A stretch of 64,000 nt of DNA, from positions 141,356 to 205,355 of the forward strand of contig JBAZNI010000002.1 in the NCBI GenBank assembly GCA_041649295.1, given 5' to 3'. The notes beneath the pieces were generated by a model, which saw only the letters and a list, made by a program, of their open reading frames with translations, did no database searches and was not told the origin of the DNA. The position numbers were made by a program, and so were the translations under genes. This DNA comes from Candidatus Pacearchaeota archaeon. GTDB lineage: Archaea > Nanobdellota > Nanobdellia > Pacearchaeales > GW2011-AR1. Below are positions 1,163-64,000 of the stretch, piece by piece; the stretch's first letter is position 1, and each line of letters opens with the position of its first letter.

Positions 1163-2254
1163 ATGAAAAAAAATTTAGCAATTACTTTTCTTGTTTTATT
1201 CCTTATTTTATCACTGGCAACTTTTGTTTCAGCAGGTTGGTTTGGGATTACTGGAAAAGCAATAAGTGTAGACAAATATGTAAAAGGGCTTAAAGAACTT
1301 GATAATGGATTAGATTATGGTGTTGCTGGAGCAATAAGGACCACCAATGGACAGGTAGGTTTGTATGATTATTGTGAAGGCAATACTTTGCATGAGTCAT
1401 ATATAGCTAGGACTTATTTAGGATATGGATTAGCTAAATATCAAGAGCATGATTGTGCTTTAGATGAAGAATGTGTTAGCGAAGAGATTACTAATTCCCA
1501 ATATGCAGGAACCTCTGCAAAATGTCGAAAGAAAACAAACCCCCGATGCGAGGATTCAGATGATGAATCTGGAACTGCAAATACTGCAGGATATGTAATT
1601 GTAGTAAATTCTGCAGGCAGAGAAATATTATATGATGGGTATAATCGTGAGGGGAATATTGGCCCTGCTGGAAAAGTTATTGAATGGACTTGCAATCCCC
1701 AAACAAATGCAGCTGAAAGAAGGGATATTTCATGTGGGGAAAATTCAAGAGTGGCTCGTGGTTCTGTTACACCCGATTATAGCATTGTTGGACAGTCAGG
1801 AAATGGAAATTCACATAATGCATATTATTGTCATGATTTTGAGCCATCATGCGATTTATCTGCAGATAAAAAAACAGTAACTGGAATTGATTCTCTTGGA
1901 AATGAGTATAGTTATTCAGATAAGTGTGTTGGGGCAACTAGCTGGGATTATTCGTGCAATGGAGACAGCACAGGATATCAATTAGCGAGGGTTCCTTGTG
2001 GAGAAGTAGGATGTGATTCTAACACGGGGTTATGTAGATCAGATTATTGCACAGATTCAGATGGTTCTGATACTGAAAGAGCAGGAATTGTTAGAATAAA
2101 AAATTCTGCACATCTTGCAACAGATATTTGCGCAGGAAGAGATAGTGTTATTGAATTTTCTTGCAGCAGCCCAGAAAACGAATACTTTGAAGCAAGAAGA
2201 ATTGCATGTGCTAATGGGAAAGTTTGCAGAGCAGGAGCTTGCAGAACAGCTTAA
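1163..2254 (+). CDS. secreted cysteine-rich protein (Sec signal peptide)
   Basis: GGAGG at 1146..1150 then ATG at 1163. N-terminus MKKNLAITFLVLFLILSLATFVSA; many Cys and repeated C.DSD(G/D) motifs. No family recognised. Confidence 0.6.
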   Translation: MKKNLAITFLVLFLILSLATFVSAGWFGITGKAISVDKYVKGLKELDNGLDYGVAGAIRTTNGQVGLYDYCEGNTLHESYIARTYLGYGLAKYQEHDCALDEECVSEEITNSQYAGTSAKCRKKTNPRCEDSDDESGTANTAGYVIVVNSAGREILYDGYNREGNIGPAGKVIEWTCNPQTNAAERRDISCGENSRVARGSVTPDYSIVGQSGNGNSHNAYYCHDFEPSCDLSADKKTVTGIDSLGNEYSYSDKCVGATSWDYSCNGDSTGYQLARVPCGEVGCDSNTGLCRSDYCTDSDGSDTERAGIVRIKNSAHLATDICAGRDSVIEFSCSSPENEYFEARRIACANGKVCRAGACRTA

Positions 2255-2302
2255 TTAATTATTTTATTTCTACTTTTTCTTATTTTTTATTTTTGTATAG
2301 GG

Positions 2303-3067
2303 TTAGTGCCCTTTATATCTTCCCCGTAATTCTACTTTTGTAAGTTGTTCTAAGACTGGCTTGTAATTTTTAGAAATTTTGTAACCTTTTAAAATAGACT
2401 GATAGTATTTTTTCCAGTTCTGAAAATGTTTTGCTTCTAGTGCTTGTTTAATTAAATGCAAATCTACTGCTTTGTCTTCTAACCTGCTGCTGTGAAAACC
2501 TAATCCAAAATCAATAAACCATACCTGCTCGCTATCGCTCGCATTTTGCTGCTTCGAATTCGGCTCTGCCAGAATTCTCTTATTAGATTTCTTTAATAAA
2601 ATATTTTTTTTAAGTTTATATTCTGTGTTTGAGTTGTTATTTGTGTTATTTGAATTTTCTTTTTTTAGTTTTTCACCTTCTGATTTTTTTACAAGTATTA
2701 TATTTGAGGTTGTTAAATCTCCGTGAATTATTCCATTGTCGTGCAGTTTTGCAATTGACTCTCCTATTTGCTCGCATATTTTTTCTGCTTTTTTTATTTC
2801 TAAATTGTCTAAATGCTCTGATAATTTCTTGCCTTCAACATAAGGCATTTTTATTGTGTAAAAATCAGGAATAAAAAAGGGTTTTGGAGAGTTAATTATT
2901 TCAGAAGCGTTTATTAATAATTTTGCTTCTTTTTTTGTTCTTTGTTTTCTAATGCTGTCGTCGAGCTGTTTTAATCTATAACCTTTAGAAATCCTGTCTT
3001 TTATTATAAAATTATTTTCTTTTATTATTTTTGCTTCTGCACCCTGGGCAATTAATTTTTGTTTCAT
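2303..3067 (-). CDS. bud32: Bud32/PRPK-type atypical protein kinase (KEOPS subunit) with an Asn/Lys-rich insertion
   Basis: N-terminal LIAQGAEAKI, catalytic HGDLTTSNII, then FIDFGLG. About 55 low-complexity residues lie between the catalytic loop and DFG. Confidence 0.75.
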   Translation of the reverse strand: MKQKLIAQGAEAKIIKENNFIIKDRISKGYRLKQLDDSIRKQRTKKEAKLLINASEIINSPKPFFIPDFYTIKMPYVEGKKLSEHLDNLEIKKAEKICEQIGESIAKLHDNGIIHGDLTTSNIILVKKSEGEKLKKENSNNTNNNSNTEYKLKKNILLKKSNKRILAEPNSKQQNASDSEQVWFIDFGLGFHSSRLEDKAVDLHLIKQALEAKHFQNWKKYYQSILKGYKISKNYKPVLEQLTKVELRGRYKGH

Positions 3068-3120
3068 TGTATATGTTTAATAATAATAATCTTTAAATAT
3101 CTTTTTTATATTAATTTTAT

Positions 3121-4881
3121 ATGGGGTGTTTGAAGGAGAGGGGGTTAAGATATTTATTGTCTGGATTATTTTTATTAACACTTGTTTTCCTTAGTTTTAA
3201 TCTTGTTAGTGGATTAAACTGCACTACTGGATTATATTCGACAGATGATTTTTATTTTTGGAATCCAAATAATTCTATTTTATGGGCAGATAGAACTACA
3301 GAGGTTTGTTGCCCAGATAATGCCTGTGTTTCTGATGATGGGACATGTTATTTAAGCACGAAAGATACCTTAAACTTTGCTAATCTTCTTTATTTGAAAG
3401 GAGGGCTTAGCCCAAGGAGCAGTGATAACTGGGCTTATTGTTATTCTCGTGGAGGAAGAGATGGAGGAGAAGCAGATGATGCAAGCTGGATGGATTGTGA
3501 TATCTGGTATTCTGGCTGGTGTAAACATCCTCTTGTTTGCGGTTCAAATTCAGGGGTTAAGTCAGGTGAAACTGCAATTCATGGGGAATATTCTTTAACA
3601 GATATTAATCAAAGTAAATTTGAATGTTGCGGAGATGATGCAAATGAGTATCCATTAAACTATAGTGCAGGAGTTGTTTGTTGTGATAGTGATTCTGATT
3701 TAGTTGATTTAAATGGCAAGTGCCATTCTGCTTCTGGGGAGTTGACCAATTCAAAAGTTGATACAGAGATTAATGCTTTGACTTTTATTAATCTGCGTGA
3801 AGAGGAAAATTTAACTATTATTAACTATCATTTATCGCAGATATTTGGAAACTCTACAGGTTATGCAGGCCTAAATGGGGAAGAGATTACATTAAATATT
3901 TTATCTTATGTAACTCAAATACTCCCATTGGGAAGCACTTTATGCCATACAGGAAGCCAGTCTTTAGAAAGTGAAAGTGCAGACTGCTATGGCTACTCTC
4001 AGGCATTTGAGGTTTTAATTAAAAAAACAGGAATTCCTATAAGGATTGTTAATGTAAAAAACATTGGCTACATGCAAGGGCATACATTGACTGAAGTATA
4101 TTATAATAATTCATGGCATTTATTTGACCCAACATTTGCAACTTTCTTTTATACTAAAGAAAATTTCGATAGTACAGGAAATGTACTTTCATTTAAAGAA
4201 GTACTTACTAATGAAAATTTAATTGAAAACTGCTTCCAAATAAATACTACTATTTACAGCGGGAATTTTACAAGTACAATTGAGATAAGGAAAGTTCCTG
4301 AAGAGTATAAACATAAGCCAAATGTTTCTTTTACTTTAATGCAGTTTTACAGAGAAGCATTATCAACTTCTTTTCCAAATTCATACTTATTTGAAGGTAA
4401 AACAGTTTCATTTCCTTTAGAATTAAATTTAAGCTCTGGAAACTTATGGCTTGGAAGTGTTGACAGCTCTTTTTCAGATTTATCTAATTTAAAAACAGGA
4501 GACAAGTATACGCGTTATGCAGGAAATTGGCTCCTTGGAAAATTAATTCATTCAACCTATGTACATACTGCAATCTTGAATACGCCTGATAAAGGCAAGT
4601 TTAAATTAACTTATTATTTTGTGAGTGGCTCTTTTGAAAACCTGGAAATAACTGAACTTAAGGGAGCTATTGTTACAGGCATTTCTAAGGGGCCAGATTA
4701 TTATGAAATTGAAGGATATGTAAGGGAATCAGGAGCTATTCTGCTTGTTACTAATAAACAACCAGCAGATAATTCCTACAGCAATATTGCGGTTGTTGAT
4801 GCAATTCATGCTGAGTTTTTTGAGAGTAAAGAAATGTTAGCAGAAGGAGATTATAATTATCTATTAACTGCTCATTATTAA
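3121..4881 (+). CDS. secreted protein with transglutaminase-like cysteine-protease core
   Basis: N-terminal hydrophobic signal and Cys-rich N-terminal half. The core DCYGYSQAFEVLIKKTGIPIRIV...GHTLTEVYYNNSWHLFDPT fits the Cys-His-Asp transglutaminase-like pattern. Confidence 0.6.
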   Translation: MGCLKERGLRYLLSGLFLLTLVFLSFNLVSGLNCTTGLYSTDDFYFWNPNNSILWADRTTEVCCPDNACVSDDGTCYLSTKDTLNFANLLYLKGGLSPRSSDNWAYCYSRGGRDGGEADDASWMDCDIWYSGWCKHPLVCGSNSGVKSGETAIHGEYSLTDINQSKFECCGDDANEYPLNYSAGVVCCDSDSDLVDLNGKCHSASGELTNSKVDTEINALTFINLREEENLTIINYHLSQIFGNSTGYAGLNGEEITLNILSYVTQILPLGSTLCHTGSQSLESESADCYGYSQAFEVLIKKTGIPIRIVNVKNIGYMQGHTLTEVYYNNSWHLFDPTFATFFYTKENFDSTGNVLSFKEVLTNENLIENCFQINTTIYSGNFTSTIEIRKVPEEYKHKPNVSFTLMQFYREALSTSFPNSYLFEGKTVSFPLELNLSSGNLWLGSVDSSFSDLSNLKTGDKYTRYAGNWLLGKLIHSTYVHTAILNTPDKGKFKLTYYFVSGSFENLEITELKGAIVTGISKGPDYYEIEGYVRESGAILLVTNKQPADNSYSNIAVVDAIHAEFFESKEMLAEGDYNYLLTAHY

Positions 4882-8716: not shown

Positions 8717-9979
8717 TTAATCCAGCCCTAAATTAGCAATAACTTCTTTTGGAGAGAAAACTTCTAGATTGTCGTATGTTTGACCTGTTCCTAAAAATAG
8801 AACTGGCTTTTTTGTTACATATCCAATTGACACAGCTGTTCCGCCTTTTTCATCTACATCGGCTTTTGTTAGAATAGTTCCGTCAATTTTAAATGCTTCA
8901 TCAAATGATTTAGCCTGTTCTGTTGCATCGTTTCCAGTAATTGATTCTGCTACAAATATCTTTAAGTCAGGAGAAGTAACGCGAACTATTTTTTCCATTT
9001 CTTTTAGCAAATTGCTTTGTGTATGCATTCTTCCTGCAGTATCAATTAAAACTGCTTTTATTCCATGTGATTTTGCATATTGTATTGCATCAAAGCCAAC
9101 TGCTGCAGGATCTGCCCCATATGACTGGCGGATTACCTTTAATCCTAGTTTTTCTCCGTGATTTTCAAGCTGTTCTATTGAGGCTGCTCTGAATGTATCC
9201 CCTGCTGCTAAAACAGATATAATCCCTTCACTTTTTAACATGTTTGCCACTTTTGCAATTGAAGTTGTTTTGCCACTTCCATTAATTCCGAAGAAAAGAA
9301 TTATAAACGGGCCTTTTTCAGCAGGTTTTTCTTTTATTCTTTTAACTATATCAAAAGGAGGCATGAGTATTTCTGAAAGAGATTCTTTTAAAGCTGTTTT
9401 TATTTCATTTTCAAGTTCTGATTTTTTAAGCTCTATATTTATTAGCTTTTTTTCCATATCTTCTTTTATTTTATCAACAACCTGCAAAGAAACATTATTT
9501 TCAAGCATTACTAATTCTAGTTTTTCAAAGAATTCATTAAATATGTCTTGAGATAGTCTTATTGTGCTAAATCCCCGGCTAAATTTTGAGAAAAACCGGA
9601 TATTTTCAGCAGGTTTCCCTTCTTCAATCTTTTTCTCAATTTTAACCTCGGGTTTCGCCTCTTTTGTTATGCTTAAAGGGGTGTTTGGCTTAATTTCAGG
9701 CGCCCTTAATTTAATTTTTTCTTCTTCTAATTCCTTTATTTCCCCTTCCAGTTCTTCAATCGCATGTTTTATCTCTTCTTTATTTTCTTCTTTATTTTCT
9801 TGTTTTTCTTCTTTAAATTCTTCCTGTTTTTTCCTTTCTTTTCTTTCAGAAGTCGTTTCTTTAGCTTTTTCACTTATTTTTTCTTCTTTACTTTCAACTA
9901 TATCTATCTCATCTACTTTTTCTTCTTTATCTCCTGCTCCAAGGAGTTTTCCTAATTTTTCCTTAAGAAATTTAAACAT
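8717..9979 (-). CDS. ftsY: signal recognition particle receptor FtsY
   Basis: Glu/Lys-rich acidic N-terminal domain, then an NG domain with GINGSGKTTS, DTAGR and TKADVD. Confidence 0.95.
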   Translation of the reverse strand: MFKFLKEKLGKLLGAGDKEEKVDEIDIVESKEEKISEKAKETTSERKERKKQEEFKEEKQENKEENKEEIKHAIEELEGEIKELEEEKIKLRAPEIKPNTPLSITKEAKPEVKIEKKIEEGKPAENIRFFSKFSRGFSTIRLSQDIFNEFFEKLELVMLENNVSLQVVDKIKEDMEKKLINIELKKSELENEIKTALKESLSEILMPPFDIVKRIKEKPAEKGPFIILFFGINGSGKTTSIAKVANMLKSEGIISVLAAGDTFRAASIEQLENHGEKLGLKVIRQSYGADPAAVGFDAIQYAKSHGIKAVLIDTAGRMHTQSNLLKEMEKIVRVTSPDLKIFVAESITGNDATEQAKSFDEAFKIDGTILTKADVDEKGGTAVSIGYVTKKPVLFLGTGQTYDNLEVFSPKEVIANLGLD

Positions 9980-15257: not shown

Positions 15258-15566
15258 TTATTCCATAATTACTTTGCTTGCTCTTTTTCCTTTTTTAGCC
15301 TGATGTGATTTTTTGCATTCCTGGCAGGTGTAAACAAAAACATGTTTCTTTGTATTTTTTGTTTTTCTTTTCCATTTGTTAATTGCAGGCTTGCTGCCTC
15401 TGCCTTTGTTTCCTAATCCGGGAATTGCCCCTCTTAGTTTCATTCTTGTTAGCGAACCCCTTGTAAGAGTTCCCCTCTTAGTTCCTGTTGAGGTTAATTT
15501 TATCTTATGCTGAGTTTTCTTATTGCAAAAAGGGCAAAACCTGTTTGTTGTCTTTGGCTTTTTCAT
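15258..15566 (-). CDS. rpl44e: 50S ribosomal protein eL42 (L44e)
   Basis: Zinc-ribbon pairs CPFCNKKT ... CQECKK in a very basic 102-aa protein. Confidence 0.85.
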   Translation of the reverse strand: MKKPKTTNRFCPFCNKKTQHKIKLTSTGTKRGTLTRGSLTRMKLRGAIPGLGNKGRGSKPAINKWKRKTKNTKKHVFVYTCQECKKSHQAKKGKRASKVIME

Positions 15567-23627: not shown

Positions 23628-23774
23628 TGCGAGGGACAGGATTCGAACCTGCGTAGGCACTAAGCCAGCAGATTTCTCAAGTTTCTCTTACTCCTATAAA
23701 GGAAGGTGTGTGAGAGGAAACCTTGGTTTCCTTCATCTTGAGTCTGCTTCGTTTGACCACTCCGACACCCTCGC
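23628..23774 (-). tRNA. tRNA-Leu (anticodon CAA) with 63-nt intron after position 37
   Basis: Acceptor GCGAGGG/CCCTCGC, anticodon stem GCAGA/TCTGC, loop CTCAAG|intron|A, long variable arm TGGCTTAGTGCCTAC, T-arm GCAGG-TTCGAAT-CCTGT. Intron at 23674..23736. Confidence 0.85.
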
Positions 23775-26011: not shown

Positions 26012-26380
26012 TTAATCAATTAGAATACCTTGAACAGAACCTTCTTGACTTGGGCGGTTTGTTATTCTTACTTTTCTATTGTCTTCTGTTTCAATAATTG
26101 CTCCTTTTGTAAGAACATTTTGTCTTGCTAAGAAACGATTTGAAGGTGTTTCAATAACATTTTTTATAGAATATACTTTTGTTTTGTGTGTTTTTGGATC
26201 AGTGACATTTACTTTATTTGCTCCCAGTAAAACTGATTTTTCATTTCCCCCTCTTGTTCTTATTGTTTTTCTTTTAGTTTCTTTTAGTTTCACGATTCTT
26301 GGCTGTCTGACTAATTCATACTTTTTCTTTTTTTTGCTCCTATGATATTTCCCACCGGTTGTTTTTCTTCCATAATCCAT
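26012..26380 (-). CDS. rps8e: 30S ribosomal protein eS8 (S8e)
   Basis: GRKTTGGKYHRSKKKKKYE...TRGGNEK...VIETPSNRFLARQNVLTKGAII is typical of S8e. Confidence 0.9.
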   Translation of the reverse strand: MDYGRKTTGGKYHRSKKKKKYELVRQPRIVKLKETKRKTIRTRGGNEKSVLLGANKVNVTDPKTHKTKVYSIKNVIETPSNRFLARQNVLTKGAIIETEDNRKVRITNRPSQEGSVQGILID

Positions 26381-28500: not shown

Positions 28501-28634
28501 GCTCCCGTAGCTCAGCCTGGATAGAGCGATAGCCTTCTAGTGATGTGGGAAAACCTACGGTTTTCCTAACACTACCTTTCCCTTAAGGTAGAGAAGAAAG
28601 CTATAGGTCGCAGGTTCGAATCCTGTCGGGAGCA
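28501..28634 (+). tRNA. tRNA-Arg (anticodon TCT) with 59-nt intron after position 37
   Basis: Acceptor GCTCCCG/CGGGAGC, D-arm GCTC-AGCCTGGATA-GAGC, anticodon stem ATAGC/GCTAT, loop CTTCTA|intron 28540..28598|A, T-arm GCAGG-TTCGAAT-CCTGT. Confidence 0.85.
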
Positions 28635-35380: not shown

Positions 35381-35781
35381 TTGACTTGAATTTGATAATC
35401 ATAATATTGCTCTTATAGAAATTTGTAATAATAAAATAAAAAAGAAAAAGATAAAAATCAAAAAGAAAAATAAAATTTGATAATATATAAAAATAAATAA
35501 TAAAATATGAAGTAAATTCTTACTTCTTTTTTTTCTTAGCAGCTTTTTTCTTAGCCATTGTTTTACCTCCTTAGATAAATGTTAATATAGAATCAATTAA
35601 ATTGATACTAATAAAACTAATTTTAATTATTTTTTTCCTCCTTTTATTTTATATTTTAAGCACTTCTTCTTTATAAATTTATGCCTTTAACAATTTCTTC
35701 CGTCGCTAAAATTCTAAATTTTTTTTATTTTTTTTATTAAATAACAGAAAAAATTAAAAAGTATAAATCCTAGAAATAATT

Positions 35782-38606: not shown

Positions 38607-38933
38607 TTATTTTTTAGTGAGTGTGATATCTATTGTAGAAACATTTATCTTCTTATTTTCTTCATTTTCAAATTTATCAGTTCCGATTTTTATAGAATCC
38701 TCTAACTCTATGTTTTCCTGCTCTTTGAATCTTTTTTTAGTAACCTCGGCAATATCTACCCCTCTTGAAATAAACTTCCCTCTTGCTTTGATTGTAACCT
38801 CTGGATTTTCCTTTAATTGCATAATTGTTGCAATTACATATTTCATAAATGGCTTGTCTCCTATAAAAACCCGGTTTGTTTCAGATGTTTTTGTAACTAT
38901 GCCTGCTTCTTTGTTGTGCTTCTTTTTTTCCAT
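38607..38933 (-). CDS. albA: DNA/RNA-binding protein Alba
   Basis: NRVFIGDKPFMKYVIATIMQLKENPEVTIKARGKFISRGVDIAEV matches the Alba core. Confidence 0.85.
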   Translation of the reverse strand: MEKKKHNKEAGIVTKTSETNRVFIGDKPFMKYVIATIMQLKENPEVTIKARGKFISRGVDIAEVTKKRFKEQENIELEDSIKIGTDKFENEENKKINVSTIDITLTKK

Positions 38934-38935
38934 TT

Positions 38936-39124
38936 TTATCCTGCTTTTTTATTTCTTTTAATCCTCGATATATAGCCTGCTATTTTATTTCTTGTACCTA
39001 TATCTGGCAGGTTATATATTTTTAGCAGTTCTTTGTTTTTTTCAAAATTCACACTAAATTCAGGAGTTCTTGCAACCAATGTTTTTGCAGTCTTCTTTAT
39101 TGCTTTTGATTTTATCCGGCCCAT
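38936..39124 (-). CDS. rps17e: 30S ribosomal protein eS17 (S17e)
   Basis: MGRIKSKAIKKTAKTLV...NKIAGYISRIKR is typical of S17e; 62 aa. Confidence 0.9.
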   Translation of the reverse strand: MGRIKSKAIKKTAKTLVARTPEFSVNFEKNKELLKIYNLPDIGTRNKIAGYISRIKRNKKAG

Positions 39125-40920: not shown

Positions 40921-41676
40921 ATGGAAGTAATAGAAATACAAGACATAAAAACGCGGGTAGGAGTTGCATCTACTGTTAGGGCTAATGATTTAATTCCAGT
41001 TTATGTTGAGGGTGTTAAAAGATTTTTAAGAGATAATCTATCTATGGGAGAGGAATGGGTTAAAACTGCTAGAGGCAGATTATATAACTTTTCTGGAAAA
41101 AGTGGAGAGGGGGATATTCTTGGTTCAAGTGCAGATATGGGTGTTGCTATTGCAACATTTTTCCCAGAATTTCCTTTAATTACTGGACAACAGCTTTTAA
41201 GACTATATTTAAAAATAGGGAATAAAAATCCTTCTGGACATGTTTATATTGATTTTGGTGTTCAAATTAATGGCAAACCAAGATTTAACCAAATTCAAGC
41301 AGAAATACTTTTAAAAGATTTTAAATCAAGAGGGATAGATGTTGGAGAGGGGAGAGTTCCAGATTTTAATCAGCTAAGGTTAGTAGCAGATGAAAATTGT
41401 GGATTAGCTTATAGATTAGCAGAAGATGTCATAGCAGAGAATATTGTTGCTGTTTCAGCGTATCCATTTGGAACTAGAGTTGGTAAAGATGGATTGTTCG
41501 GGGCTTATCTTGACGGGGATGGTAGCTGGTACGCTATTGTTGGGGGCTTGCCTAGCTCTGGCTCCGTTGGTCAGATGGTTCGTTATGACACCAAAGGCGT
41601 CGTGCCAAAAAAATTAGACACCTCTAGCGATAATTTGGTGGATAAACTAACACGAGATTTCATTAAAAGATTTTAG
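40921..41676 (+). CDS. hypothetical protein, paralogue of 55809..56612, with A-depleted hypervariable-looking C-terminal patch
   Basis: 251 aa, no signal peptide. Collinear similarity to the 267-aa protein (ILGSS/ITGSS, LRLVADENCGLAYRL/HRLDGNFPYGVAISL, G.dG..W patch, TSSDNL/TSADLL tail). Confidence 0.5.
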   Translation: MEVIEIQDIKTRVGVASTVRANDLIPVYVEGVKRFLRDNLSMGEEWVKTARGRLYNFSGKSGEGDILGSSADMGVAIATFFPEFPLITGQQLLRLYLKIGNKNPSGHVYIDFGVQINGKPRFNQIQAEILLKDFKSRGIDVGEGRVPDFNQLRLVADENCGLAYRLAEDVIAENIVAVSAYPFGTRVGKDGLFGAYLDGDGSWYAIVGGLPSSGSVGQMVRYDTKGVVPKKLDTSSDNLVDKLTRDFIKRF

Positions 41677-41962
41677 AAATATTTTTAAGTTTTCTTTTTT
41701 TATTAATATTCCTAACCATCTGGTTAGGCCACACGTCAGTTTATTAAGACATTATTTGAGTTTATCTTAAATTATTAAGAAAAATAAATGTTAGGAATAT
41801 GGAAAATAAAATTAAACAATTTACAAAAGGACAAATTAGCTTAAAAAGTTATTATATAATTTTTAAGGTGGGCAGGCATATTCAATGTGGGCAGATACAT
41901 ATAATCTAAGGAATATATTCACAAAACAAATGATTTAAATATTTCTGTTTATGATGTTTATT

Positions 41963-55808: not shown

Positions 55809-56612
55809 ATGTTGGATAAAATTTTAAACACAGCAGAGGACTTAGTAATAATCGGCAAGTCAGGAACAAAAGGCAAATATGTTTTTGCTTTTCCACTAGA
55901 AGGAAAAGTTGCAAAACACTATTTTGATAAAACTCTTGCAGATGGAGAAGAAAGAAACGTAGCTGGTTTTAAAGAGTACTGGCAATTTGATGATAAAACA
56001 GGATTAATAACTGGCTCAAGCACTTTTTTAGCTTTAAGACTTGATGAAGCAGTTAGAGCAGATGGTTTTTGGATACCAGATATAGAAGAAGCATTATTTT
56101 TAGATAAAGAAAGAAGATTAACAAATGGAGTTTACAGAGATTATGGATTAGCTGTTTTTAATGATGGGGGACCTAATCAAAAAGTGGCAAATGAAATTAT
56201 TAGTAAATCTGGGAATAGAGACCTGCCATTAATTATCCCTTTTAAAGATATGACCCACAGACTAGATGGAAATTTCCCTTATGGTGTTGCAATTTCTTTA
56301 GTTGATAATCCTTCTGGATTAAAATCAGGAGAACAAGCGCAGAAAATTTTAAGCAGGTCTAATTATGTTGGAGATTCTGGGGCGTGCGGGGTTTGTCGCT
56401 ACAGGGGTGGCGATTGGCTTGCTAGCTTGGACGAGTTAGGCGTCTCTGGCTCCTGTGGTCGGGGGGATTTTTTGTGTGGCGAAGCCACAAGCGCTGATTT
56501 GTTAAGTGCCCATGATGGTTTACTTGAGAGGGAATATAACACTAAATTAATTCAATTGCAAGAAGAAAGAGAGGAAAGAGAAAAAAGTTTTTTAGAATCT
56601 TTTAAAAAATAA
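55809..56612 (+). CDS. hypothetical protein, paralogue of 40921..41676, with A-depleted hypervariable-looking C-terminal patch
   Basis: 267 aa, no signal peptide. The patch encodes GDSGACGVCRYRGGDWLASLDELGVSGSCGRGDFLCGE using codons rare elsewhere in the window. Confidence 0.5.
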   Translation: MLDKILNTAEDLVIIGKSGTKGKYVFAFPLEGKVAKHYFDKTLADGEERNVAGFKEYWQFDDKTGLITGSSTFLALRLDEAVRADGFWIPDIEEALFLDKERRLTNGVYRDYGLAVFNDGGPNQKVANEIISKSGNRDLPLIIPFKDMTHRLDGNFPYGVAISLVDNPSGLKSGEQAQKILSRSNYVGDSGACGVCRYRGGDWLASLDELGVSGSCGRGDFLCGEATSADLLSAHDGLLEREYNTKLIQLQEEREEREKSFLESFKK

Positions 56613-56639
56613 GTATATAAGCAATTTGCAGATTTTATT

Positions 56640-56981
56640 TTAGCCTAATTCGTCAAGTTTTCTCTGTATTTCTCTTAACTGTGATTCAATGTCAGAATCT
56701 TCTTTTAAATCCCTTTTTTGTTTTACCTGTACCTGGATTTTTTTTGCTTCTTCAATTTTATGGGTTGTTGGGACTTCTTTTAGGAGTTCAAAGATTGCTT
56801 CTTTTATTTCTGATATTTCATTTTTTAATTTTATCTTAAGCATAATTTCTTTTTTTCTTAATAATCTGTATTCCTTTAATCTTTTTATTGTTGCAAGTAT
56901 CTCTGCTTCAGTTTTCAATATTTCTTTTCTAATTTGCACTGCTTCAGAATAACCAATTTTTGCATAAACAGGTTCATCCAT
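56640..56981 (-). CDS. coiled-coil protein
   Basis: 113 aa with heptad-like Glu/Lys/Ile-rich sequence. Co-oriented 4 nt after the upstream gene. Confidence 0.45.
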   Translation of the reverse strand: MDEPVYAKIGYSEAVQIRKEILKTEAEILATIKRLKEYRLLRKKEIMLKIKLKNEISEIKEAIFELLKEVPTTHKIEEAKKIQVQVKQKRDLKEDSDIESQLREIQRKLDELG

Positions 56982-56985
56982 TTTC

Positions 56986-57633
56986 TTAAACTTTTGTGAA
57001 TAAATCTTGATCTATTTTTTCAAGATTTGATTTAATAATTTCTAATTCCCCTTCCCATTGACTTAATTCTCTTTCTTCACTTGATTTAAGCTCTTTAATC
57101 CCCTTTAAAGTAAAATCTAGTTCAGAAAGCTTTATTTTTATTTCGTTAAATTTTGAAATTGCTTTTTCAAATTTGTCAAGCTTAACAAACAGCTGTTCTT
57201 GCCCCCTTATTTTTTGGGCAAACTGGAATGTTTCTTTTTGATTCCCATCAGATTCAAAATTACTGATTCTTCTTTCCGGATTTGGGTGAATCATTAAAGA
57301 ACCAACTGTTTTGTGACTTGGCAACTCTTCTATTTCTTTTGTTCTGCTTCCAATTGCAGAATATTTTTTAAACTGCTCCGGGGGTTTTGGAGATTCTATA
57401 AATTCGCTTTCTTCATTTATAGCCTGTTTTATTGTATTTTGGTTAATTTCATCCCCTAAGTTTGATTTTGGGAATTTTGGCAATGCAGGAAGATAATCAG
57501 AGGGTTCCTGATCTTCTTCATATTCTGTCTCATCTTTTGGCAATGCAGGAATTTTAGGATATTCTCTTGAACTTGGCAATGCAGGAAGAGTTTCTATTTC
57601 ATCCCCCCTCTTTTTTTTCCAAAATAAGCCCAT
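56986..57633 (-). CDS. protein with three (L/I)PALP repeats and a C-terminal coiled coil
   Basis: 215 aa. LPALPSS, IPALPKD and LPALPKF are each encoded by the same 14-mer; the C-terminal half is helical. Confidence 0.45.
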   Translation of the reverse strand: MGLFWKKKRGDEIETLPALPSSREYPKIPALPKDETEYEEDQEPSDYLPALPKFPKSNLGDEINQNTIKQAINEESEFIESPKPPEQFKKYSAIGSRTKEIEELPSHKTVGSLMIHPNPERRISNFESDGNQKETFQFAQKIRGQEQLFVKLDKFEKAISKFNEIKIKLSELDFTLKGIKELKSSEERELSQWEGELEIIKSNLEKIDQDLFTKV

Positions 57634-57752
57634 ATTATATTTCTCTTTTATATATTATAATATTGTATAAACTATCGCTATGTTTAAAAATCTATCTATA
57701 TGTTTTTACATGCAATAGATGAATTTTTAAACTTATTTTTTGTTAATAGTTT

Positions 57753-58553
57753 ATGGCTAATGATAAGGCAAATATTTCTGTAAAAGATGTTAAAACAGAA
57801 TTTCTTAGAGAGATTGCTTTATCTATTGCAGGAAAAAATGCAGGGGCAATGGTTGATTTGCTTATCGGAAAGGAAAATGTGAATGAATTTATTATTGCAA
57901 AAAAACTTGGGTTGACAATAAATCAGGTTAGGAATATCCTGTATAAACTATCTGATGAGGGGCTTGTTTCTTTTATAAGAAAAAAGGACAAGAAAAAAGG
58001 GTGGTATACATATTTTTGGACATTTGACGATGATAAATCTCTTTCTTTGCTGAAAAAAAGTTTATTGGATGAAATTTCCCGGCTACAAGGTCAGCTAAAA
58101 AGCAGGGAAATTAAACAGTTTTATATTTGTAAAACCTGCAATGTTGAATTGACAGAAGAGAATGCCATGCTTCATGATTTTACATGCCCTGAATGTGGAG
58201 AGATTTATGGGGCTTCTGACAGCTCTTCAGCAATCAGCGAGATAGAATCAAGCATTAATAAACTTCGAAAAAGACTTGAAAAAATAGATTTTGAGCTTAA
58301 TATTATAAAAATTGAAAAAGAAAAGAAAGCAGTAAAACGTGCAGTAAAAGCAGAAAGAGCAGCTAAAGAACTAAGAAAACAGAAAAGAGATGAAAGAGCT
58401 GCAAAAAAGATAAGGGAAAATGTGCAGATTAAAAAGATTCATAAGGTAAATTTTAGAAAGAAGCAGACAAAATACAAGGTTATTAAAAAGGCAAAAAAAT
58501 CTCCAAAAAAATCTGCCCTTAAAAACCGCAAAAAACAGCAGAGAAAAAAATAA
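57753..58553 (+). CDS. tfe: transcription factor E (TFE-alpha, TFIIE-alpha homologue) with Lys-rich tail
   Basis: A winged helix (EFIIAKKLGLTINQVRNILYKLSDEGLVSF), the Zn-ribbon CKTCN...CPECG, and a long basic C-terminal extension. Confidence 0.8.
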   Translation: MANDKANISVKDVKTEFLREIALSIAGKNAGAMVDLLIGKENVNEFIIAKKLGLTINQVRNILYKLSDEGLVSFIRKKDKKKGWYTYFWTFDDDKSLSLLKKSLLDEISRLQGQLKSREIKQFYICKTCNVELTEENAMLHDFTCPECGEIYGASDSSSAISEIESSINKLRKRLEKIDFELNIIKIEKEKKAVKRAVKAERAAKELRKQKRDERAAKKIRENVQIKKIHKVNFRKKQTKYKVIKKAKKSPKKSALKNRKKQQRKK

Positions 58554-58576
58554 AAAATTAAGATAATAATCAAAAA

Positions 58577-59326
58577 ATGGGCGAAAATCTTAGAATCTAT
58601 ACAAAAAGAAATCTTAAACATGGTTTTTTTGAAAAATTTTTGTATAATTTTTCTGTAACAAAACAGATAATAACCGCAAACATTATTTTATTTATACTTT
58701 TTACTACTTTGCTGACTATTAATTCGGGTTTTATAGATTATATTGCTCTCAAACCAAGCGATGTTGCTGGGGGAAAATATCTTTGGACATTTGCAACAAG
58801 TATGTTTATGCATGCTCCTGCAGCATTAATATTTCCATTCAGTCTGCTTTCGTTCCACCTTTTAATTAATATGTTTGTTCTTATTTCACTTGGAAGTTTT
58901 TGTGAAAAAATAATTGGTAGAAAGAGGTTTTTATGGTTTTATATTATTGCAGGGTTAGTCTCGGGAGCAGTATTTGTTCTACTTTCTGTGTTTTTTGCAA
59001 ATTTTCCTTTTTGGGAAAAAGTTTTTGGAAGTCCTGAAATTGCAGGAGTTGGTGCGAGTGGAGCAATATTTGCTGTTGCTGGACTGCTTATGGTGTTAAT
59101 TCCAAAATTGAAATTTACAGTAATCTTTTTCCCATTTTTTTCACTTCCTGCTTATGTAATGATTCCTTTAGTTTTATTTGCAACTTGGGGGGTTTCAGCA
59201 GCAAGCGGGCTGCCTGTTGGAAATACAGCCCATTTCGGAGGATTTTTAACCGGGGTTATTTACGGAGTTTATCTTAGAAAAAAATATTCAAAAAAAATTA
59301 AAATATTAAACAGGTATATTGGATGA
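58577..59326 (+). CDS. rhomboid-family intramembrane serine protease
   Basis: Multi-TM protein with HLLINM, the catalytic GASGAIFAV, and AHFGGFLTG. Confidence 0.8.
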   Translation: MGENLRIYTKRNLKHGFFEKFLYNFSVTKQIITANIILFILFTTLLTINSGFIDYIALKPSDVAGGKYLWTFATSMFMHAPAALIFPFSLLSFHLLINMFVLISLGSFCEKIIGRKRFLWFYIIAGLVSGAVFVLLSVFFANFPFWEKVFGSPEIAGVGASGAIFAVAGLLMVLIPKLKFTVIFFPFFSLPAYVMIPLVLFATWGVSAASGLPVGNTAHFGGFLTGVIYGVYLRKKYSKKIKILNRYIG

Positions 59327-60090
59327 TAAGAAGAAAGAAGCGCATTGAAAGAGGCAAAGATTTTTTTGGCATCAGAAAAAAGTATTTTGAAAGTTTTAAA
59401 TTTTTAAAATCAATTGATAACTATCTTGCAATGTCTTTTGCGCTGTTTTTATTTTTATTTGCTTTTGGGTTTTTGGCGTTTTTTATACTGCCTGATTCTA
59501 TTTTAAATTATCTTCTTGAGTTTGTTTCGAAATGGATTAAAGAACTGTTAGAACAGACAGAAGGAAAGGGATTTTTTGAAATGTGGTGGTACATATTTGC
59601 GAATAATCTTAGTATAGGTTTTTTTTCAGCGTTTTTAGGAATTTTCTTAGGGATACCTACTTTGTTTTTTCTCTTTTTTAACGGAGCAGGTATTGGGTTT
59701 GTTTCAGGAATTGTTGCTAATGAAGAAAATCTGATAAGCTTATTAACTTTGCTTCCTCACGGGGTATTTGAAATTCCAGCAATACTTATTTCGTTTGCTT
59801 TGGGAATTAAGCTGGGATACTCCCCAATTTTAAGGCTTATTAAGACATATTATAAAAATGCAGATGATTTTTTAATTGCGCTCTTTTTTATTTTGCTGTT
59901 TCCGCTGATTGTTATTTTTAGTCTTCCTTTATTTATTATTGCTGCTGTGTTTACTATGAATAACTTTAGTTTAAGAAAAAAATTTCTTCATGATTTAGCA
60001 AGCTCAATTCAAGTATTTTTTCTTATTGTTGCCCCTTTATTTATAATTGCAGCAATAATTGAAAGCGCCTTGATTGTCTTTTGGAGTTAA
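59323..60090 (+). CDS. SpoIIM-like (DUF95) membrane protein
   Basis: IFANNLSIGFF, FFNGAGIGFV and LLPHGVFEIPAILISFALG are typical of the family. ATGA overlap with the rhomboid gene. Confidence 0.6.
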   Translation: MIRRKKRIERGKDFFGIRKKYFESFKFLKSIDNYLAMSFALFLFLFAFGFLAFFILPDSILNYLLEFVSKWIKELLEQTEGKGFFEMWWYIFANNLSIGFFSAFLGIFLGIPTLFFLFFNGAGIGFVSGIVANEENLISLLTLLPHGVFEIPAILISFALGIKLGYSPILRLIKTYYKNADDFLIALFFILLFPLIVIFSLPLFIIAAVFTMNNFSLRKKFLHDLASSIQVFFLIVAPLFIIAAIIESALIVFWS

Positions 60091-60277
60091 CAAATAATTT
60101 ATGTAATAATCCATAACAACCTTGTTTATGTTTTTTAATACTGATAGGAGAATATTTACTTTTTATTTTAGTTTATTATTTATTCTTAACCCTAAACATT
60201 AATGATAGATTTTCTTCACATTAACCTTTTATTTTTAGTACAATAATATTTATAAATGATTAAATCCAGGAGAAATT

Positions 60278-60622
60278 ATGGAGATTAGAGAATCTGGATT
60301 ATGGTGGATGGTAAAAAATCCTTATCAATTAGACACTAATCATACTATTTTATTAGCACGTGACTTTAAAAATGGTGGTGTGTCTGAGGAGGGATTTACT
60401 AGAGAAGAAGTAAAACAAATTGTGCCTCAAGTAGAGAAAATGTTTAGACGTTGTTTTTATAAAAGATCGTATGGGTATACATTAGTAACTGTTAATGGAG
60501 AACAATTTTATGTTTGTGTAGATGAATCATCGGTTAGAATTCCTCAAGGATCAAATATGAAGGGAATTAGAACTTCAAATGACAATGAAATTCCTACATT
60601 TGAACGTGGACTAAAAGATTAA
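60278..60622 (+). CDS. hypothetical protein
   Basis: 114-aa ORF with a TATA-like element upstream. No motif recognised. Confidence 0.35.
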   Translation: MEIRESGLWWMVKNPYQLDTNHTILLARDFKNGGVSEEGFTREEVKQIVPQVEKMFRRCFYKRSYGYTLVTVNGEQFYVCVDESSVRIPQGSNMKGIRTSNDNEIPTFERGLKD

Positions 60623-61728
60623 AACCACTCTTTTAGTCTTTTTTGCTTTCCAAACTGACTTAATAAAACTGAATTATTTGTGTAATGTTCTATTGGGATA
60701 GTTAATCGTTTTTGGATGTCGTTGAGAGCTTCTTTTAGTGTTTGAAATTTACTAAAGGGCTGTTTAAACGCGCCTCTTGCATTTTCTCTCAAGATTCCTA
60801 CCCCTAACGGAACATCATAAGTTGGAAGAACTTCTCTGAAAAATATACAGGAACACTGGCGATTTATTTTTATTAGATATTCACACAATGCAAGGCGGTT
60901 TGCATAATAAGCTCCTGTAACATTTGCTGCGTAGTTTTTTCTTCTGTAAAAACCTTCATAATCTTTCCATATTCCTAAATCTTTTGTAGAAATTTCTATA
61001 ACTTCAAATGAAAATTTATCAGGTAATAGCAGGATTTCATAATGATTTCCCAAGTATTCTGAATTAAACACCTGAAAATCGTTAATCTCATTAAAAAAGC
61101 GAATTTTTTTAAGCATTTCTTTTGAAAGAGTATCATCAACAGCAGTTATTGCCCATTTTGTTGGAACTAGTTTTCTGTTTTCTTTTAAACCTAAGAGTCC
61201 TGCTGAAAGAATCTTTATGATATTGCTTACCTCTAATTTATAATTATACAATTCTTTTATCCCCTCTGCTGATTTTAGTTTTGTATCTGATGAAATATAG
61301 TCTGCTTTTGGATGTATTTTGGGGTTTTCCTCTAAGTTTATATCTTCTAATGGTGCAGGATTTCCAATAATTGGGACAGAAAACTCTTTTATCTCATAAC
61401 TTGCTGGAGATTTTTGGAGGAAAAATTCTGCAGAAACAGATTTTCTTGCAAGTGCTACTTGGTTTAATGCAGAAGTTAGTTTAGTAATTTTTTTTGGCTT
61501 TATATCTGCTTTAAATCTTGCATAAAGCAGTTGTTTTCTGTAATTAATAATTTCTTTCATAGAAGCATTTTTTTCATACCATTTTTCAGGAGAGGAAAAA
61601 TCTTCTGTATCTCCAGATTTAACAGGGGACAATATTCCTGCATAAACTTTTGGGTACCCTTCTCTCCCTATAAATATCTCTGGAGGAGTGCTTCCTTTAA
61701 ATTGTTTTTTGTTAAGAAATTCTTCCAT
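60619..61728 (-). CDS. Nre-family putative DNA repair protein
   Basis: N-terminal FKGSTPPEIFIGREGYPKVYAGILSP and the overall length fit archaeal Nre (DUF650/651) proteins. Confidence 0.7.
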   Translation of the reverse strand: MEEFLNKKQFKGSTPPEIFIGREGYPKVYAGILSPVKSGDTEDFSSPEKWYEKNASMKEIINYRKQLLYARFKADIKPKKITKLTSALNQVALARKSVSAEFFLQKSPASYEIKEFSVPIIGNPAPLEDINLEENPKIHPKADYISSDTKLKSAEGIKELYNYKLEVSNIIKILSAGLLGLKENRKLVPTKWAITAVDDTLSKEMLKKIRFFNEINDFQVFNSEYLGNHYEILLLPDKFSFEVIEISTKDLGIWKDYEGFYRRKNYAANVTGAYYANRLALCEYLIKINRQCSCIFFREVLPTYDVPLGVGILRENARGAFKQPFSKFQTLKEALNDIQKRLTIPIEHYTNNSVLLSQFGKQKRLKEWF

Positions 61729-61823
61729 AAATATTATTATGATTTTATATCTGTTTTCTTTTATTCAAAAATATCTAAAGCGTTAATACACTTTTTTTCA
61801 TTAGATTTAGGTATTTTATGGAA

Positions 61824-62021
61824 CTAATTCTTTAAATCACTTATTCCAAGCATTAGAAATAAAAGTCCTATCATTATTATGAACCAGACTATTCCCCCTT
61901 TAAGGAATTCCCATGCTGCTGTTCCAAAATTCCAGAATCCCAGATTTTGAGTGTATGCCCATAAAAATATTGCAACTACAATCAAAATCAGTCCTGCCAA
62001 AATTTCAAGCCATTTATTCAT
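61824..62021 (-). CDS. small membrane protein
   Basis: 65 aa with two TM helices. Confidence 0.4.
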   Translation of the reverse strand: MNKWLEILAGLILIVVAIFLWAYTQNLGFWNFGTAAWEFLKGGIVWFIIMIGLLFLMLGISDLKN

Positions 62022-62277
62022 ATAATATTATTATTTTCTGCATTTAAAAAGATATTTATAATAGACAAGATATTTCATTTACTTTTTAATTTATTTAGCA
62101 ACCCTTTTTTTTCTCATTTTTTAGTTTATATAACTGTTATGAAATCTTGTATAAACTGTATGTTGTCTTGGATTGCTTTGGCATTGCAGACCCTTTAATG
62201 TATATAATCTAGCAATTAACTTCAAAGAGTATTGAAGTCTTCAAATTATTTATAAAGGTGGTTTGCTATTGGTTTGT

Positions 62278-64000
62278 ATGAAAAAATTACAATTGCTTAA
62301 TGTATTGCTGATTGTTTGTATAGCAATATTTGCAATTCTTGTATTTAGCATTTTTCAGCAACAACCTGATTCTGGAACTGAGAAAATCAATAAATTTAAT
62401 TCTTATAAAGAGCTGGCTGAATTTGTGAATAAATCGAGTTCTTCTTATTATAGCTATTATGGCAGAGAAGGTATAGGAGGCATGGAAATACCTAATGCAG
62501 TTATGGAGGAGAAAGACAGCAGTTCTGAATCTGGCGGAGCAGGGGATTATTCTGCCACTAATATACAAGTAGAGGGTGTTGATGAGCCAGATATTGTAAA
62601 AAATGACGGAAAATATATTTATGCTGTTTCTGGAAATAAAGTATTCATTATTAATGCTTATCCTGCAGAATCTATGGAAATTATTTCTGAAATAAATTTA
62701 AACAAAAGTGTTAGTAATATATTTATTAATGGAAATAAATTAGTGATTTTTTCAAATGGGCATAATTATATTCCTTATGTTGCAGATTGTGCTGTTGATA
62801 GTGCTGGAATGATGAAGGACTGCGGAGGTTATTCAGAGTCTTCAACTATTGCCTCTGTTTATGATATATCTGACAAAGAAAATCCAGAACTTGAAGATGA
62901 ATTTTCTTCAGATGGTTATTATGTTGATGCAAGAATGATTGATAAATATGTTTACTTAATTTCTTCAAAATACATTTATACAGACAATATTTTTATGCCA
63001 AGTTTTTCAGCTAATGGTATTAAAGAAACTGTTTCTGCAAGTGATGTGTACTATTTTGGATATTCAGATAATAATTATGTATTTAATTCAATTATGGCAA
63101 TAAACTTAGATAATGGAGAGTATGAAAGCAAAGTCTATCTCACAGGGGGTTCAACTTCTTTGTATGTTTCTGAAAATAGTATTTATTTTACTACTATTAA
63201 ATCTATAGGTTATCATGAGATTATAGATAAGAGGATTGAAGAAGTTTATTTTGAAATACTTCCCAACTCTGAAATATCAGAAATAAAAAATATTCTTGAT
63301 TCAGATGAAGAAGATTATAAAAAATACAATAAAATTGAGGAAATTATATATGAATATTCTAATTCATTAACTGGAGAGGAAAAAGATAAATTTGATTCTG
63401 ACTTAAAGGATAAAATAGAAGAATTTCAGATTAAAATTTCTAAAGAATTAGAAAAGACAATTGTGCATAAAGTAAGCATTGATGGAAGTGAGATTAATTA
63501 TAAAGGAAGTGGAGAAGTTCCTGGGCAAGTTTTGAATCAGTTTTCAATGGACGAGTACCGGGGAAATTTTAGAATTGCAACTACTACTGGCAATACTTGG
63601 AGCGAAACAAGCTATAACCACCTCTATGTTTTAGATGAAGATTTAAAGATAATTGGAAAAATTGAAGATTTAGCTAAAGGTGAAAGAATTTATTCTGTTC
63701 GTTTCTTGGGAAGCAAGGCATATATGGTTACATTTAGGCAGGTGGACCCTTTATACGTAATTGATTTATCTGATTCTGAAAACCCTGAAGTTTTGGGTTA
63801 TCTTAAGGTAACAGGATATTCGAGTTATCTTCATCCTTATGACGAAAATCATATAATTGGTGTGGGAATGGAGGCAAATGAACAGGGAAGAACTCAAGGG
63901 ATGAAAATCGCTTTGTTTGATGTTTCTGATTTTGAAAATCCAAAGGAAATGAGCAAATATGAAGTTGAAGGGGTGTGGAGTTATTCGCCTGCGTTATATG
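62278..64000 (+). CDS. secreted beta-propeller domain protein (Beta_propel family), 3'-truncated by the window edge
   Basis: Hand translation from ATG 62278: MKKLQLLNVLLIVCIAIFAILVF...DYSATNIQVEGVDEPDIVKNDGKYIYAVSGNKVFIINAYP...FRQVDPLYVIDLSD. Absent from the ORF track because it has no stop in the window. Confidence 0.75.
   Translation, partial: MKKLQLLNVLLIVCIAIFAILVFSIFQQQPDSGTEKINKFNSYKELAEFVNKSSSSYYSYYGREGIGGMEIPNAVMEEKDSSSESGGAGDYSATNIQVEGVDEPDIVKNDGKYIYAVSGNKVFIINAYPAESMEIISEINLNKSVSNIFINGNKLVIFSNGHNYIPYVADCAVDSAGMMKDCGGYSESSTIASVYDISDKENPELEDEFSSDGYYVDARMIDKYVYLISSKYIYTDNIFMPSFSANGIKETVSASDVYYFGYSDNNYVFNSIMAINLDNGEYESKVYLTGGSTSLYVSENSIYFTTIKSIGYHEIIDKRIEEVYFEILPNSEISEIKNILDSDEEDYKKYNKIEEIIYEYSNSLTGEEKDKFDSDLKDKIEEFQIKISKELEKTIVHKVSIDGSEINYKGSGEVPGQVLNQFSMDEYRGNFRIATTTGNTWSETSYNHLYVLDEDLKIIGKIEDLAKGERIYSVRFLGSKAYMVTFRQVDPLYVIDLSDSENPEVLGYLKVTGYSSYLHPYDENHIIGVGMEANEQGRTQGMKIALFDVSDFENPKEMSKYEVEGVWSYSPALY

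Follow-up and report, generated by a model that had tools for sequence, protein, structure and literature searches.

Diversity-generating retroelements (DGRs) carry an RNA with a template repeat (TR) that is reverse-transcribed by a dedicated reverse transcriptase (RT). The adenines of the template are miscopied, and the complementary DNA (cDNA) replaces the variable region (VR) of a target gene. Replacement is bounded on the 3′ side by a motif resembling the initiation-of-mutagenic-homing (IMH) site and is aided by a nearby hairpin, as in phage BPP-1. We describe here a gene that is very probably a target of such an element, the open reading frame (ORF) 55809..56612 of a 64,000-nucleotide stretch of contig JBAZNI010000002.1 from a Candidatus Pacearchaeota archaeon. 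The whole of this stretch is called the window. DGRs have been reported as prevalent in Pacearchaeota and Woesearchaeota (PMC6349945). Archaeal DGRs have been described as carrying a hairpin with a GRA loop (R, purine) within the target gene (PMC4372165, PMC5006420). For the Nanoarchaeota, a contrast of GGG in the VR and GAA in the TR has been reported at the paired sites IMH and IMH*, and VR sites that have no RT were read as fossils or as remote targets (PMC4372165); the same ambiguity is met here. The archaeal target AvpA (PDB ID: 5IOO, 256 aa) has its VR at residues 181–203, and its hairpin falls within the codons of a C-terminal extension for which a helical structure is predicted (PMC5006420). 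Many VR classes within the CPR (candidate phyla radiation) and in DPANN archaea are still unclassified (PMC5758913).

The protein encoded by ORF 55809..56612 is identical to NCBI entry MFA5020386.1 (WC533_04805), from a Candidatus Pacearchaeota metagenome-assembled genome (MAG; 206.8-kb contig). It has 122 relatives among 50%-identity representatives, and the family is restricted to DPANN. No Pfam or NCBIfam family matched the 267-aa protein. The features of the gene are:

55809..56612 (+), DGR target (variable-protein) gene, T1-type, 267 aa; an ORF with family relatives that have a TR and an RT

56379..56461 (+), variable region VR1, 83 nt, codons 191–218, sharing the register of TR/VR pairs from 10 loci

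56457..56469 (+), IMH-like 3′ boundary GGTCGGGGGGATT; family VR consensus GGTCGGGTGGATT, TRs GGTCGAATGGCTC

56475..56489 (no strand), hairpin or cruciform TGTGGC-GAA-GCCACA, 6-bp stem and GAA loop, within the coding sequence (C223–T227)

The boundaries of VR1 were anchored on the 3′ end common to the VRs of the family.

VR1 lies in a patch that stands apart in composition. Positions 56371..56497 hold 16 A in 127 nt (12.6%; an earlier note made from the sequence alone had counted about 15) and are 60% G+C, against 32% A and 31% G+C in the window. The patch is the G+C maximum among all 127-nt stretches of the 64-kb window (top 0.008%) and is within the lowest 0.2% for A content. The sole other stretch of at least 52% G+C is a second patch, 41476..41625. 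The crowding of rare codons described in the same note was also borne out. The median synonymous-codon fraction is 0.20 for residues 188–230 and 0.56 for the remainder of the gene (Mann–Whitney p=7e-7), and G+C at third codon positions is 0.53 in the patch and 0.17 in the remainder. For CGC, CGG, GCG, GCC, GTC, and TCC the synonymous fraction is under 0.07 in every case. We considered an RNA gene hidden in the patch and rejected it, since the Rfam scan is blank there; tRNA and Rfam scans of the window showed no tRNA and no Rfam family beneath either patch. Four other A-poor stretches occur in the window, at 9678–9944, 15341–15490, 26232–26378, and 38869–38999. Unlike the two patches, these are T-rich (47–63% T) and not G+C-rich, and they are ordinary strand-asymmetric AT-rich sequence.

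To place the gene, 35 loci (numbered with the prefix L) of relatives of the T1-type target or of the 251-aa-type target over the second patch were fetched and scanned for TR/VR pairs and an RT. A TR of about 90 nt lies directly upstream of an RT in 11 loci (L001, L002, L010, L013, L014, L015, L018, L027, L028, L033, and L035), where the relative is of the 267-aa type or of the 251-aa paralogue type. The systematic scan of these 11 loci gave 9–17 adenine-site mismatches between VR and TR per 60 nt and at most one other. L001, from a JGI metagenome, has two paralogous targets, each bearing an 83-nt repeat; 40 nt upstream of an RVT_1 gene the repeat occurs a third time, in an A-rich form with AAC/AAT codons. 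All VR/TR differences in this locus fall on TR adenines. The 267-aa protein is 56% identical to target 1 of L001, which the TR and RT adjoin. In the cassettes whose gene lists were inspected there is no ORF, and hence no gene like that of the accessory variability determinant (Avd), between target and RT, the gap being taken up by an RNA of the Rfam family RT-16 and the TR; no Avd profile search was made. Avd genes are frequent in DGRs, though not all have one. L004 has an RT, and its TR was seen only as a 50-nt repeat of 84% identity. The strict adenine-only scan found no TR/VR pair in L004, L007, or L029.

Three of these loci have oddities of their own. In L007 (a Nanoarchaeia MAG), at 2080–3755, the target runs into a TR-type 3′ end (GGTCGAATGGCTCAG...), which the RT follows; a C-terminal tail, a hairpin, and RT-16 are all missing. 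This looks like a deletion through VR–TR recombination, a second route of DGR decay. In L002 (7556–7790) and L004 (10750–10967), the first ~55–63 nt of the target gene, a run of N, and its last ~55–80 nt are repeated right after the target, which suggests a collapsed tandem second target or scaffolding trouble at a hypervariable repeat.

VR1 itself carries the adenine signature. The consensus of ten heterologous TRs has 25 A sites, of which 20 are changed in VR1, and 58 non-A sites, of which 12 are changed (Fisher p=5e-7); the enrichment at adenine sites is significant against each of the 10 TRs singly. The protein family varies in the same places. Close homologues, when aligned, show good conservation over the first 190 residues, and in residues 191–217 invariant columns (G191, R197, W203, A205, S213, and G217) are interleaved with highly variable ones. 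We defined a TR-A codon as a codon of the consensus TR with A at position 1 or 2. Over a 72-sequence alignment, TR-A codons have a mean entropy of 2.82 bits, as against 1.10 bits for the remaining codons (p=1.5e-5). The residues that prevail in the variable columns, D, G, Y, S, N, C, and V, are those that AAY (Y, pyrimidine) can give rise to. Relatives might instead have carried the patch unchanged, base for base, as the earlier note had asked to be checked; the TR-adenine codons are in fact the most variable. That note had also pointed to an ‘RGG.W’ core. Its R197 and W203 are indeed fixed in the family, but both glycines are hypervariable positions. An ‘RGGSW’ motif of the formylglycine-generating-enzyme (FGE) type, to which appeal was made, does not define the target family of ORF 55809..56612.

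The hairpin downstream of VR1 exists as first described, one base to the left of the position given for it. Among 27 VR tails 88% of the cells are paired, compensatory double changes occur in five of the six pairs, and the covariation score is 0.358 as against 0.141 in shuffles. The stem starts 18 nt past the start of the IMH-like motif in every subfamily, and its sequence differs between subfamilies (GTGGC/GCCAC; GTGTTGC/GCAACAC; GCGCC/GGCGC; GACGCC/GGCGTC).

A paralogue in the same MAG, MFA5019584.1 (WC533_00625), lies on a separate 565-kb contig. It differs from the 267-aa protein at 12 of 190 residues in the N-terminal part, at 10 of 27 in the VR, and at none of 10 in the segment encoded by the IMH-like motif and hairpin. 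Nine of the 10 VR differences are in TR-A codons (p=0.0075). Both paralogues share a variant IMH-like motif, at which the proteins read GRGDF. Since the two differ at TR-adenine codons and share the variant motif and the hairpin, the simplest reading would be that diversification went on after the IMH mutation and after the duplication.

We conclude that the patch is, with high probability, the product of DGR adenine mutagenesis, as the earlier note had proposed. This is because the family is a DGR target with TR and RT beside its members, VR1 has the adenine signature, an IMH-like end and a hairpin follow, and the paralogue has diverged. A TR-bearing RNA would be copied by a dedicated RT with miscopying of adenines, and the cDNA would rewrite VR1; the IMH-like end would bound the replacement at its 3′ side, and the hairpin at 56475..56489 would assist. 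Such rewriting would leave the patch poor in A, would keep the G+C-rich non-A bases of the TR in a 31% G+C genome, and would place the variation at codon positions 1 and 2 of template AAY codons. The patch might otherwise be a conserved Gly/Cys-rich structural motif with odd codon usage and no link to a retroelement. A few near-invariant positions (G191, R197, W203, and S213) and the lack of an assigned Pfam family are in keeping with that. However, variability in the region peaks between the invariant positions, at sites that coincide with the TR-adenine codons, homologues have TR copies and RTs adjoining, and the codon bias tracks the template sequence rather than any amino-acid need. We give such a motif almost no chance and regard it as refuted by the TR/RT neighbours of homologues, the adenine signature, and the column entropy.

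An AlphaFold2 model of the 267-aa protein, made with the 72-sequence alignment, has a predicted local distance difference test (pLDDT) score of 97.6 and a predicted TM score (pTM) of 0.92, and thus gives a confident predicted structure for a DPANN target family of ~260 aa. The predicted order is an N-terminal β-hairpin and helix, two helices and a long strand, and a helix/strand insert of ~75 residues. Three strands with the VR and the IMH-encoded strand are predicted next, then a 39-residue C-terminal helix. A domain-only model (pLDDT 96.6) was compared with the PDB using Foldseek. Nearly all of the top 50 matches are C-type-lectin-like (langerin, CD23, Mincle, CLEC5A, Ly49, and Dectin-1), as the C-type-lectin fold anticipated in the earlier note would have it, but they are weak (E 0.17–1.3, TM 0.22–0.46) and none is significant, which counts against the DGR reading, as DGR variable proteins are expected to have this fold. 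CLEC5A is also the protein with which AvpA was compared. 5IOO is absent from these top 50, and a Foldseek search of a viral structure library gave no match. A sequence profile search of the PDB (three profiles, E up to 10) returned no AvpA (5IOO), Mtd, or TvpA and no chain with a meaningful E value, and no Pfam homology of the target family to FGE-sulfatase or DUF1566 was found. From the models, the target protein is likely to belong to the C-type-lectin class. No signal peptide or transmembrane segment is apparent by eye in the 267-aa protein.

The second patch lies in a decayed cassette, 14 kb upstream of ORF 55809..56612. Its parts are:

40921..41676 (+), second DGR target gene, P2-type, 251 aa, MFA5020371.1 (WC533_04730); an ORF with 42 homologues

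41491..41573 (+), variable region VR2, fossil, its own TR deleted, compared with the TR of L002

41569..41601 (no strand), degenerate IMH-like motif GGTCAGATGG and hairpin GACaCC-AAA-GGCGTC (41587..41601) with one stem mismatch

41709..41775 (+), 5′ relic of an RT-16 RNA (Rfam RF03019), first hairpin CCTAACCA/TGGTTAGG and then CCACACGTCAGTTTATTAAG

41760..41932 (+), RT pseudogene with only the final ~60 codons left, frameshifted once and interrupted by one in-frame stop, found by tblastn and a hidden Markov model (HMM)

The 251-aa and 267-aa (T1) families are homologous (hhalign probability 95.6%, E=1.2e-8, 154 columns), and homologues of the 251-aa protein in L002 and L004 are followed by RT-16, TR, and RT. 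VR2 differs from the TR of L002 at 20 of 27 A sites and at nine of 56 non-A sites (p=3.7e-7), and it is identical across three assemblies. VR1 and VR2 align in frame with 48 of 83 bases identical, in agreement with the claim that the two patches are paralogous. The accompanying caveat, that they are too different for one template, is right about the difference. It is no obstacle, because each VR fits its own TR lineage better and there are two separate target/TR lineages. The counterpart of the degenerate IMH-like motif in L002, L004, and the intact cassette beyond the window is GGCAGGGTGG; the degenerate motif and the mismatched hairpin of VR2 fit with decay of the cassette. Over 20.7 kb, the window differs from ENA/Logan sequence by just a 9-nt length change in a T-rich stretch (35718–35726) and one C/T single-nucleotide polymorphism at 41234, which gives S105F in the 251-aa target, outside VR2.

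Downstream of this target, a stretch of about 65 nt is almost identical to the beginning of the intergenic RNA of intact cassettes (aligned to L001). Confident alignment is limited to the 5′ hairpin and the CCACACG segment. Its cmscan score of 19 bits (E=1.8) falls short of the gathering threshold of 50 bits, and the copy is therefore a relic, not a member of the family. The earlier note had seen no RT in the window, but the C-terminus of a pseudogenized one is present. When the window was translated in six frames, an HMM of 120 DPANN DGR RTs (model length 340) had matches at 41760..41852 and 41831..41932 and nowhere else; these matches are colinear, at model positions 278–308 (i-E 1.5e-4) and 302–335 (i-E 6.5e-5). 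Compared with the RT of L001, the pseudogene gives a tblastn E value of 2e-5. The leucyl-tRNA synthetase (LeuRS) gene starts directly downstream, at 41951. Since only the RNA stub and the RT tail remain before LeuRS, the TR has been deleted along with ~80% of the RT gene and the remainder of RT-16.

Other assemblies carry the sequence past the end of the window. The ENA contig k141_2666218 (ERZ27247363) ends at window position 56067, and the ENA contig k141_1443620 begins at 56026 and is 100% identical to window 56260..64000. A Logan contig of SRR8542065 begins at 56496 and does not cover VR1. All three contigs break inside or at the edge of gene 55809..56612, in the part of it that the paralogue duplicates. 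Nine mismatches between the window and k141_1443620 lie at 56166..56258. These nine substitutions convert the window sequence to that of paralogue MFA5019584.1 (GG to RE, K to E, D to E, and MT to VA). We rejected them as VR variation, because they are outside VR1 and reproduce the residues of the paralogue; they stem instead from a chimeric assembly at the duplicated segment or from gene conversion between the two paralogues. On k141_1443620 an intact cassette lies ~1.3–3.2 kb past the window end, ~9.6 kb downstream of the VR1 gene, adjoining a ribosomal-protein operon. The whole cassette corresponds to L039 399–2317, minus strand, and to L041 9114–11032. In window-equivalent positions it comprises:

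65317..65928, a 203-aa target

65951..66091, RT-16, 106 bits

about 66090..66181, the TR

66204..67235, an intact 343-aa RT (RVT_1) with YVDD and LGNLTSQ motifs

This TR differs from its own VR at 16 adenine sites and nowhere else in the repeat. The 203-aa target has a borderline local similarity to the 251-aa protein around the VR of the latter (BLASTP E=0.006). A DGR-type RT, which the earlier note had advised looking for, is therefore present in the genome, as the intact 343-aa enzyme with its own TR/VR pair on a contig identical to window 56260..64000, in addition to the window pseudogene. The genome is therefore not one without an RT.

In the intact cassettes the RT-16 RNA takes a fixed place. 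The full motif scores 93 bits in L001 and 56–108 bits in eleven further RT cassettes (12 of 12 tested), and in all of them it ends within a few bases of the TR start. The passages on RT motifs in PMC5737381 place these motifs only near RT genes and tie only RT-10 to a DGR. The first RT-16 hairpin has a 5′ arm, CCTAGCCAT, with a local 3′ arm, ATGGCTGGG, and a near-copy of that arm, ATGGCTAGG, 10–20 nt past the TR and before the RT start. We compared the two pairings in L001 11617–11955 and in the same region of L002, L004, L010, L013, L015, L018, L027, L028, L033, L035, and L039. Over these 12 cassettes (108 cells), the local pairing has 93 Watson–Crick and 10 G–U pairs, and the distal pairing has 96 and 4. 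In L027 the 5′ arm and the distal copy have changed jointly (CCCTGCCAT/ATGGCAGGG), with the local arm unchanged. One possibility is an alternative long-range stem that would bracket the TR, akin to the a1/a2 repeats of retron RNA. In the window, the relic of the 5′ arm is at 41709–41730.

ORF 55809..56612 has neither a TR nor an RT adjacent, and its neighbour genes in the window show no synteny with other target loci. It is an orphan or non-adjacent DGR target. We infer that VR1 was written by a non-adjacent TR of the T1 type, which would lie elsewhere in the genome (for example, beside WC533_00625) or be lost. We lean slightly towards VR1 as a non-adjacent target that is still serviceable or was recently serviced, because its cis elements are intact. 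Several observations weigh against this. When 60-nt pieces of the two patches were run along the window in an ungapped scan tolerant of adenines, no TR was found for either, the pieces of VR1 having at least seven non-adenine mismatches per 60 nt everywhere. None was found in the 3.6 kb past the window end (L039) either, where the one TR present aligns to no VR but its own. A further 9.6 kb (L041) hold the ribosomal-protein operon and no other RT, as judged by gene content with no VR1-pattern scan. In the window and the ENA contig beyond, ~77 kb in all, no TR cognate to 56379..56461 was found; the template repeat that the earlier note had wanted located is seen for homologous VRs, in the 11 other loci. 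VR1 is identical in the window and in the independent ENA ERZ27247363 assembly, with no sign of turnover at the consensus level, and its IMH-like motif bears one T-to-G change relative to the family VR consensus. The hairpins of the orphan loci L020 and L021 are damaged, and several relatives have no RT for kilobases. VR1 could accordingly be a fossil, written by a past DGR whose TR has since gone from the genome, and now a slowly drifting coding segment. Orphan relatives with neither RT nor TR are common (L008, L009, L021, L023, L030, and L034), the broken hairpins mean that fossil VRs exist in the family, and the same window holds a proven one, VR2, its TR deleted and its RT a pseudogene. 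We put a fossil VR1 at a little short of an even chance. The hairpin of VR1 is perfect, whereas those of VR2, L020, and L021 are not; the two paralogues have diverged at TR-adenine codons, with the hairpin and the variant IMH-like motif common to both, which suggests that diversification outlasted the duplication; and the 565-kb contig with the paralogue lies outside the ~77 kb covered by the TR search. Composition cannot by itself separate a live VR from a dead one, because the fossil VR2 is still 55% G+C and 16% A (VR1 is 62% G+C). A VR1-type TR can be written as the sequence pattern TGCNGGNNTNNTCGCNNCNGGNNTNNCNNTTGGNNTGCTNNCTNGNNCNNNNNNNNCNNCTCTNNCTCCNNTGGTCG. A pattern with 42 fixed bases had no match in genome and metagenome contig collections, not even to the window itself, and as these lack this genome the result has no bearing on the TR.

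The intact cassette downstream might also have diversified VR1 with its own TR. It is on the same contig, its TR/VR pair looks active from the 16 adenine-site differences and no others, and non-adjacent DGR targets are documented (PMC5758913). Yet in an adenine-tolerant local alignment its TR scores 23 and 26 against the 267-aa and 251-aa genes, which is the chance level, and 164 against its own target, and its repeat is of another length and register than VR1. These scores refute the downstream TR as the template of VR1 or VR2, and we consider diversification of VR1 by this route highly improbable. The downstream RT may act in trans with another TR, which falls under the main reading. A wider proposal is that ORF 55809..56612 is a live non-adjacent target in a multi-locus DGR network, with its TR elsewhere or with one RT acting in trans on several TR RNAs, RT-16 then being the 5′ handle of the template RNA. 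The network would comprise at least four related loci, namely the decayed cassette at 40.9–41.95 kb, the orphan target, the intact downstream cassette, and the paralogous target on the other contig; the two known contigs of the genome total ~0.77 Mb. We offer this tentatively and think it rather unlikely.

Two Rfam tRNA matches elsewhere in the window, 134 nt at 28501–28634 (+) and 147 nt at 23628–23774 (−), were not reported by ARAGORN. These are probably intron-containing archaeal tRNA genes.

DGR systems of this sort are already known, and the VR1 gene is a further case in Pacearchaeota; our knowledge of how DGRs work is unchanged by these results. The locus does illustrate that a DGR VR can be recognized solely from raw sequence in an AT-rich genome through adenine depletion and template-imposed rare codons. 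Mildly new are the decay intermediate in the window, the occurrence of three DGR-related loci within 26 kb, and the position of RT-16 directly 5′ of the TR, by which that motif gains a genomic role. The three loci represent three life stages of a DGR in one ultra-small archaeal genome, that is, an intact cassette, an orphan target with intact cis elements, and an RNA stub with an RT pseudogene. The window and the sequence downstream are thus a concrete case for studying how a DGR is lost and whether its target persists after it or is served from a distance.

Among known systems, BPP-1 (Mtd/TR/Brt) shares the adenine mutagenesis, the IMH boundary, a downstream GC-rich inverted repeat that aids homing, and AAY codons (PMC5758913). 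It differs in that the hairpin here is part of the coding sequence and has a loop of 3 nt, and in the lack of an ORF between target and RT in the cassettes inspected. In the intact cassettes RT-16 is located 5′ of the TR, whereas the RT-10 motif of BPP-1 lies 3′ of its TR, according to the passage on RT-10 in PMC5737381. The non-adjacent DGR targets of Treponema denticola (tvpA) and related ones (PMC5758913) are in the situation that we propose for ORF 55809..56612, where the remoteness is hypothetical. The archaeal AvpA agrees with the targets here in size (256 against 267 and 251 aa), in a short VR (~27 residues) with, beyond it, a C-terminal extension of some 45 residues for which helix is predicted, in a hairpin encoded in this extension, and in AAY-rich template codons. 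Its sequence has no detectable similarity to the target family, with no match up to E 10. The topology predicted here, with two helices, strands with large inserts, and the VR on the last strands, resembles a C-type-lectin fold with inserts. In arrangement the loci are like the Nanoarchaeota and DPANN DGRs (PMC4372165). These have the same order of target, TR, and RT, and the VR is near but not at the C-terminus. Their IMH and IMH* likewise differ as GG and AA (published TGGGGT/TGGAAT, here TCGGGT/TCGAAT). A hairpin with a GRA trinucleotide loop lies within the target gene, and several DGR loci occur in one small genome, as they do here.

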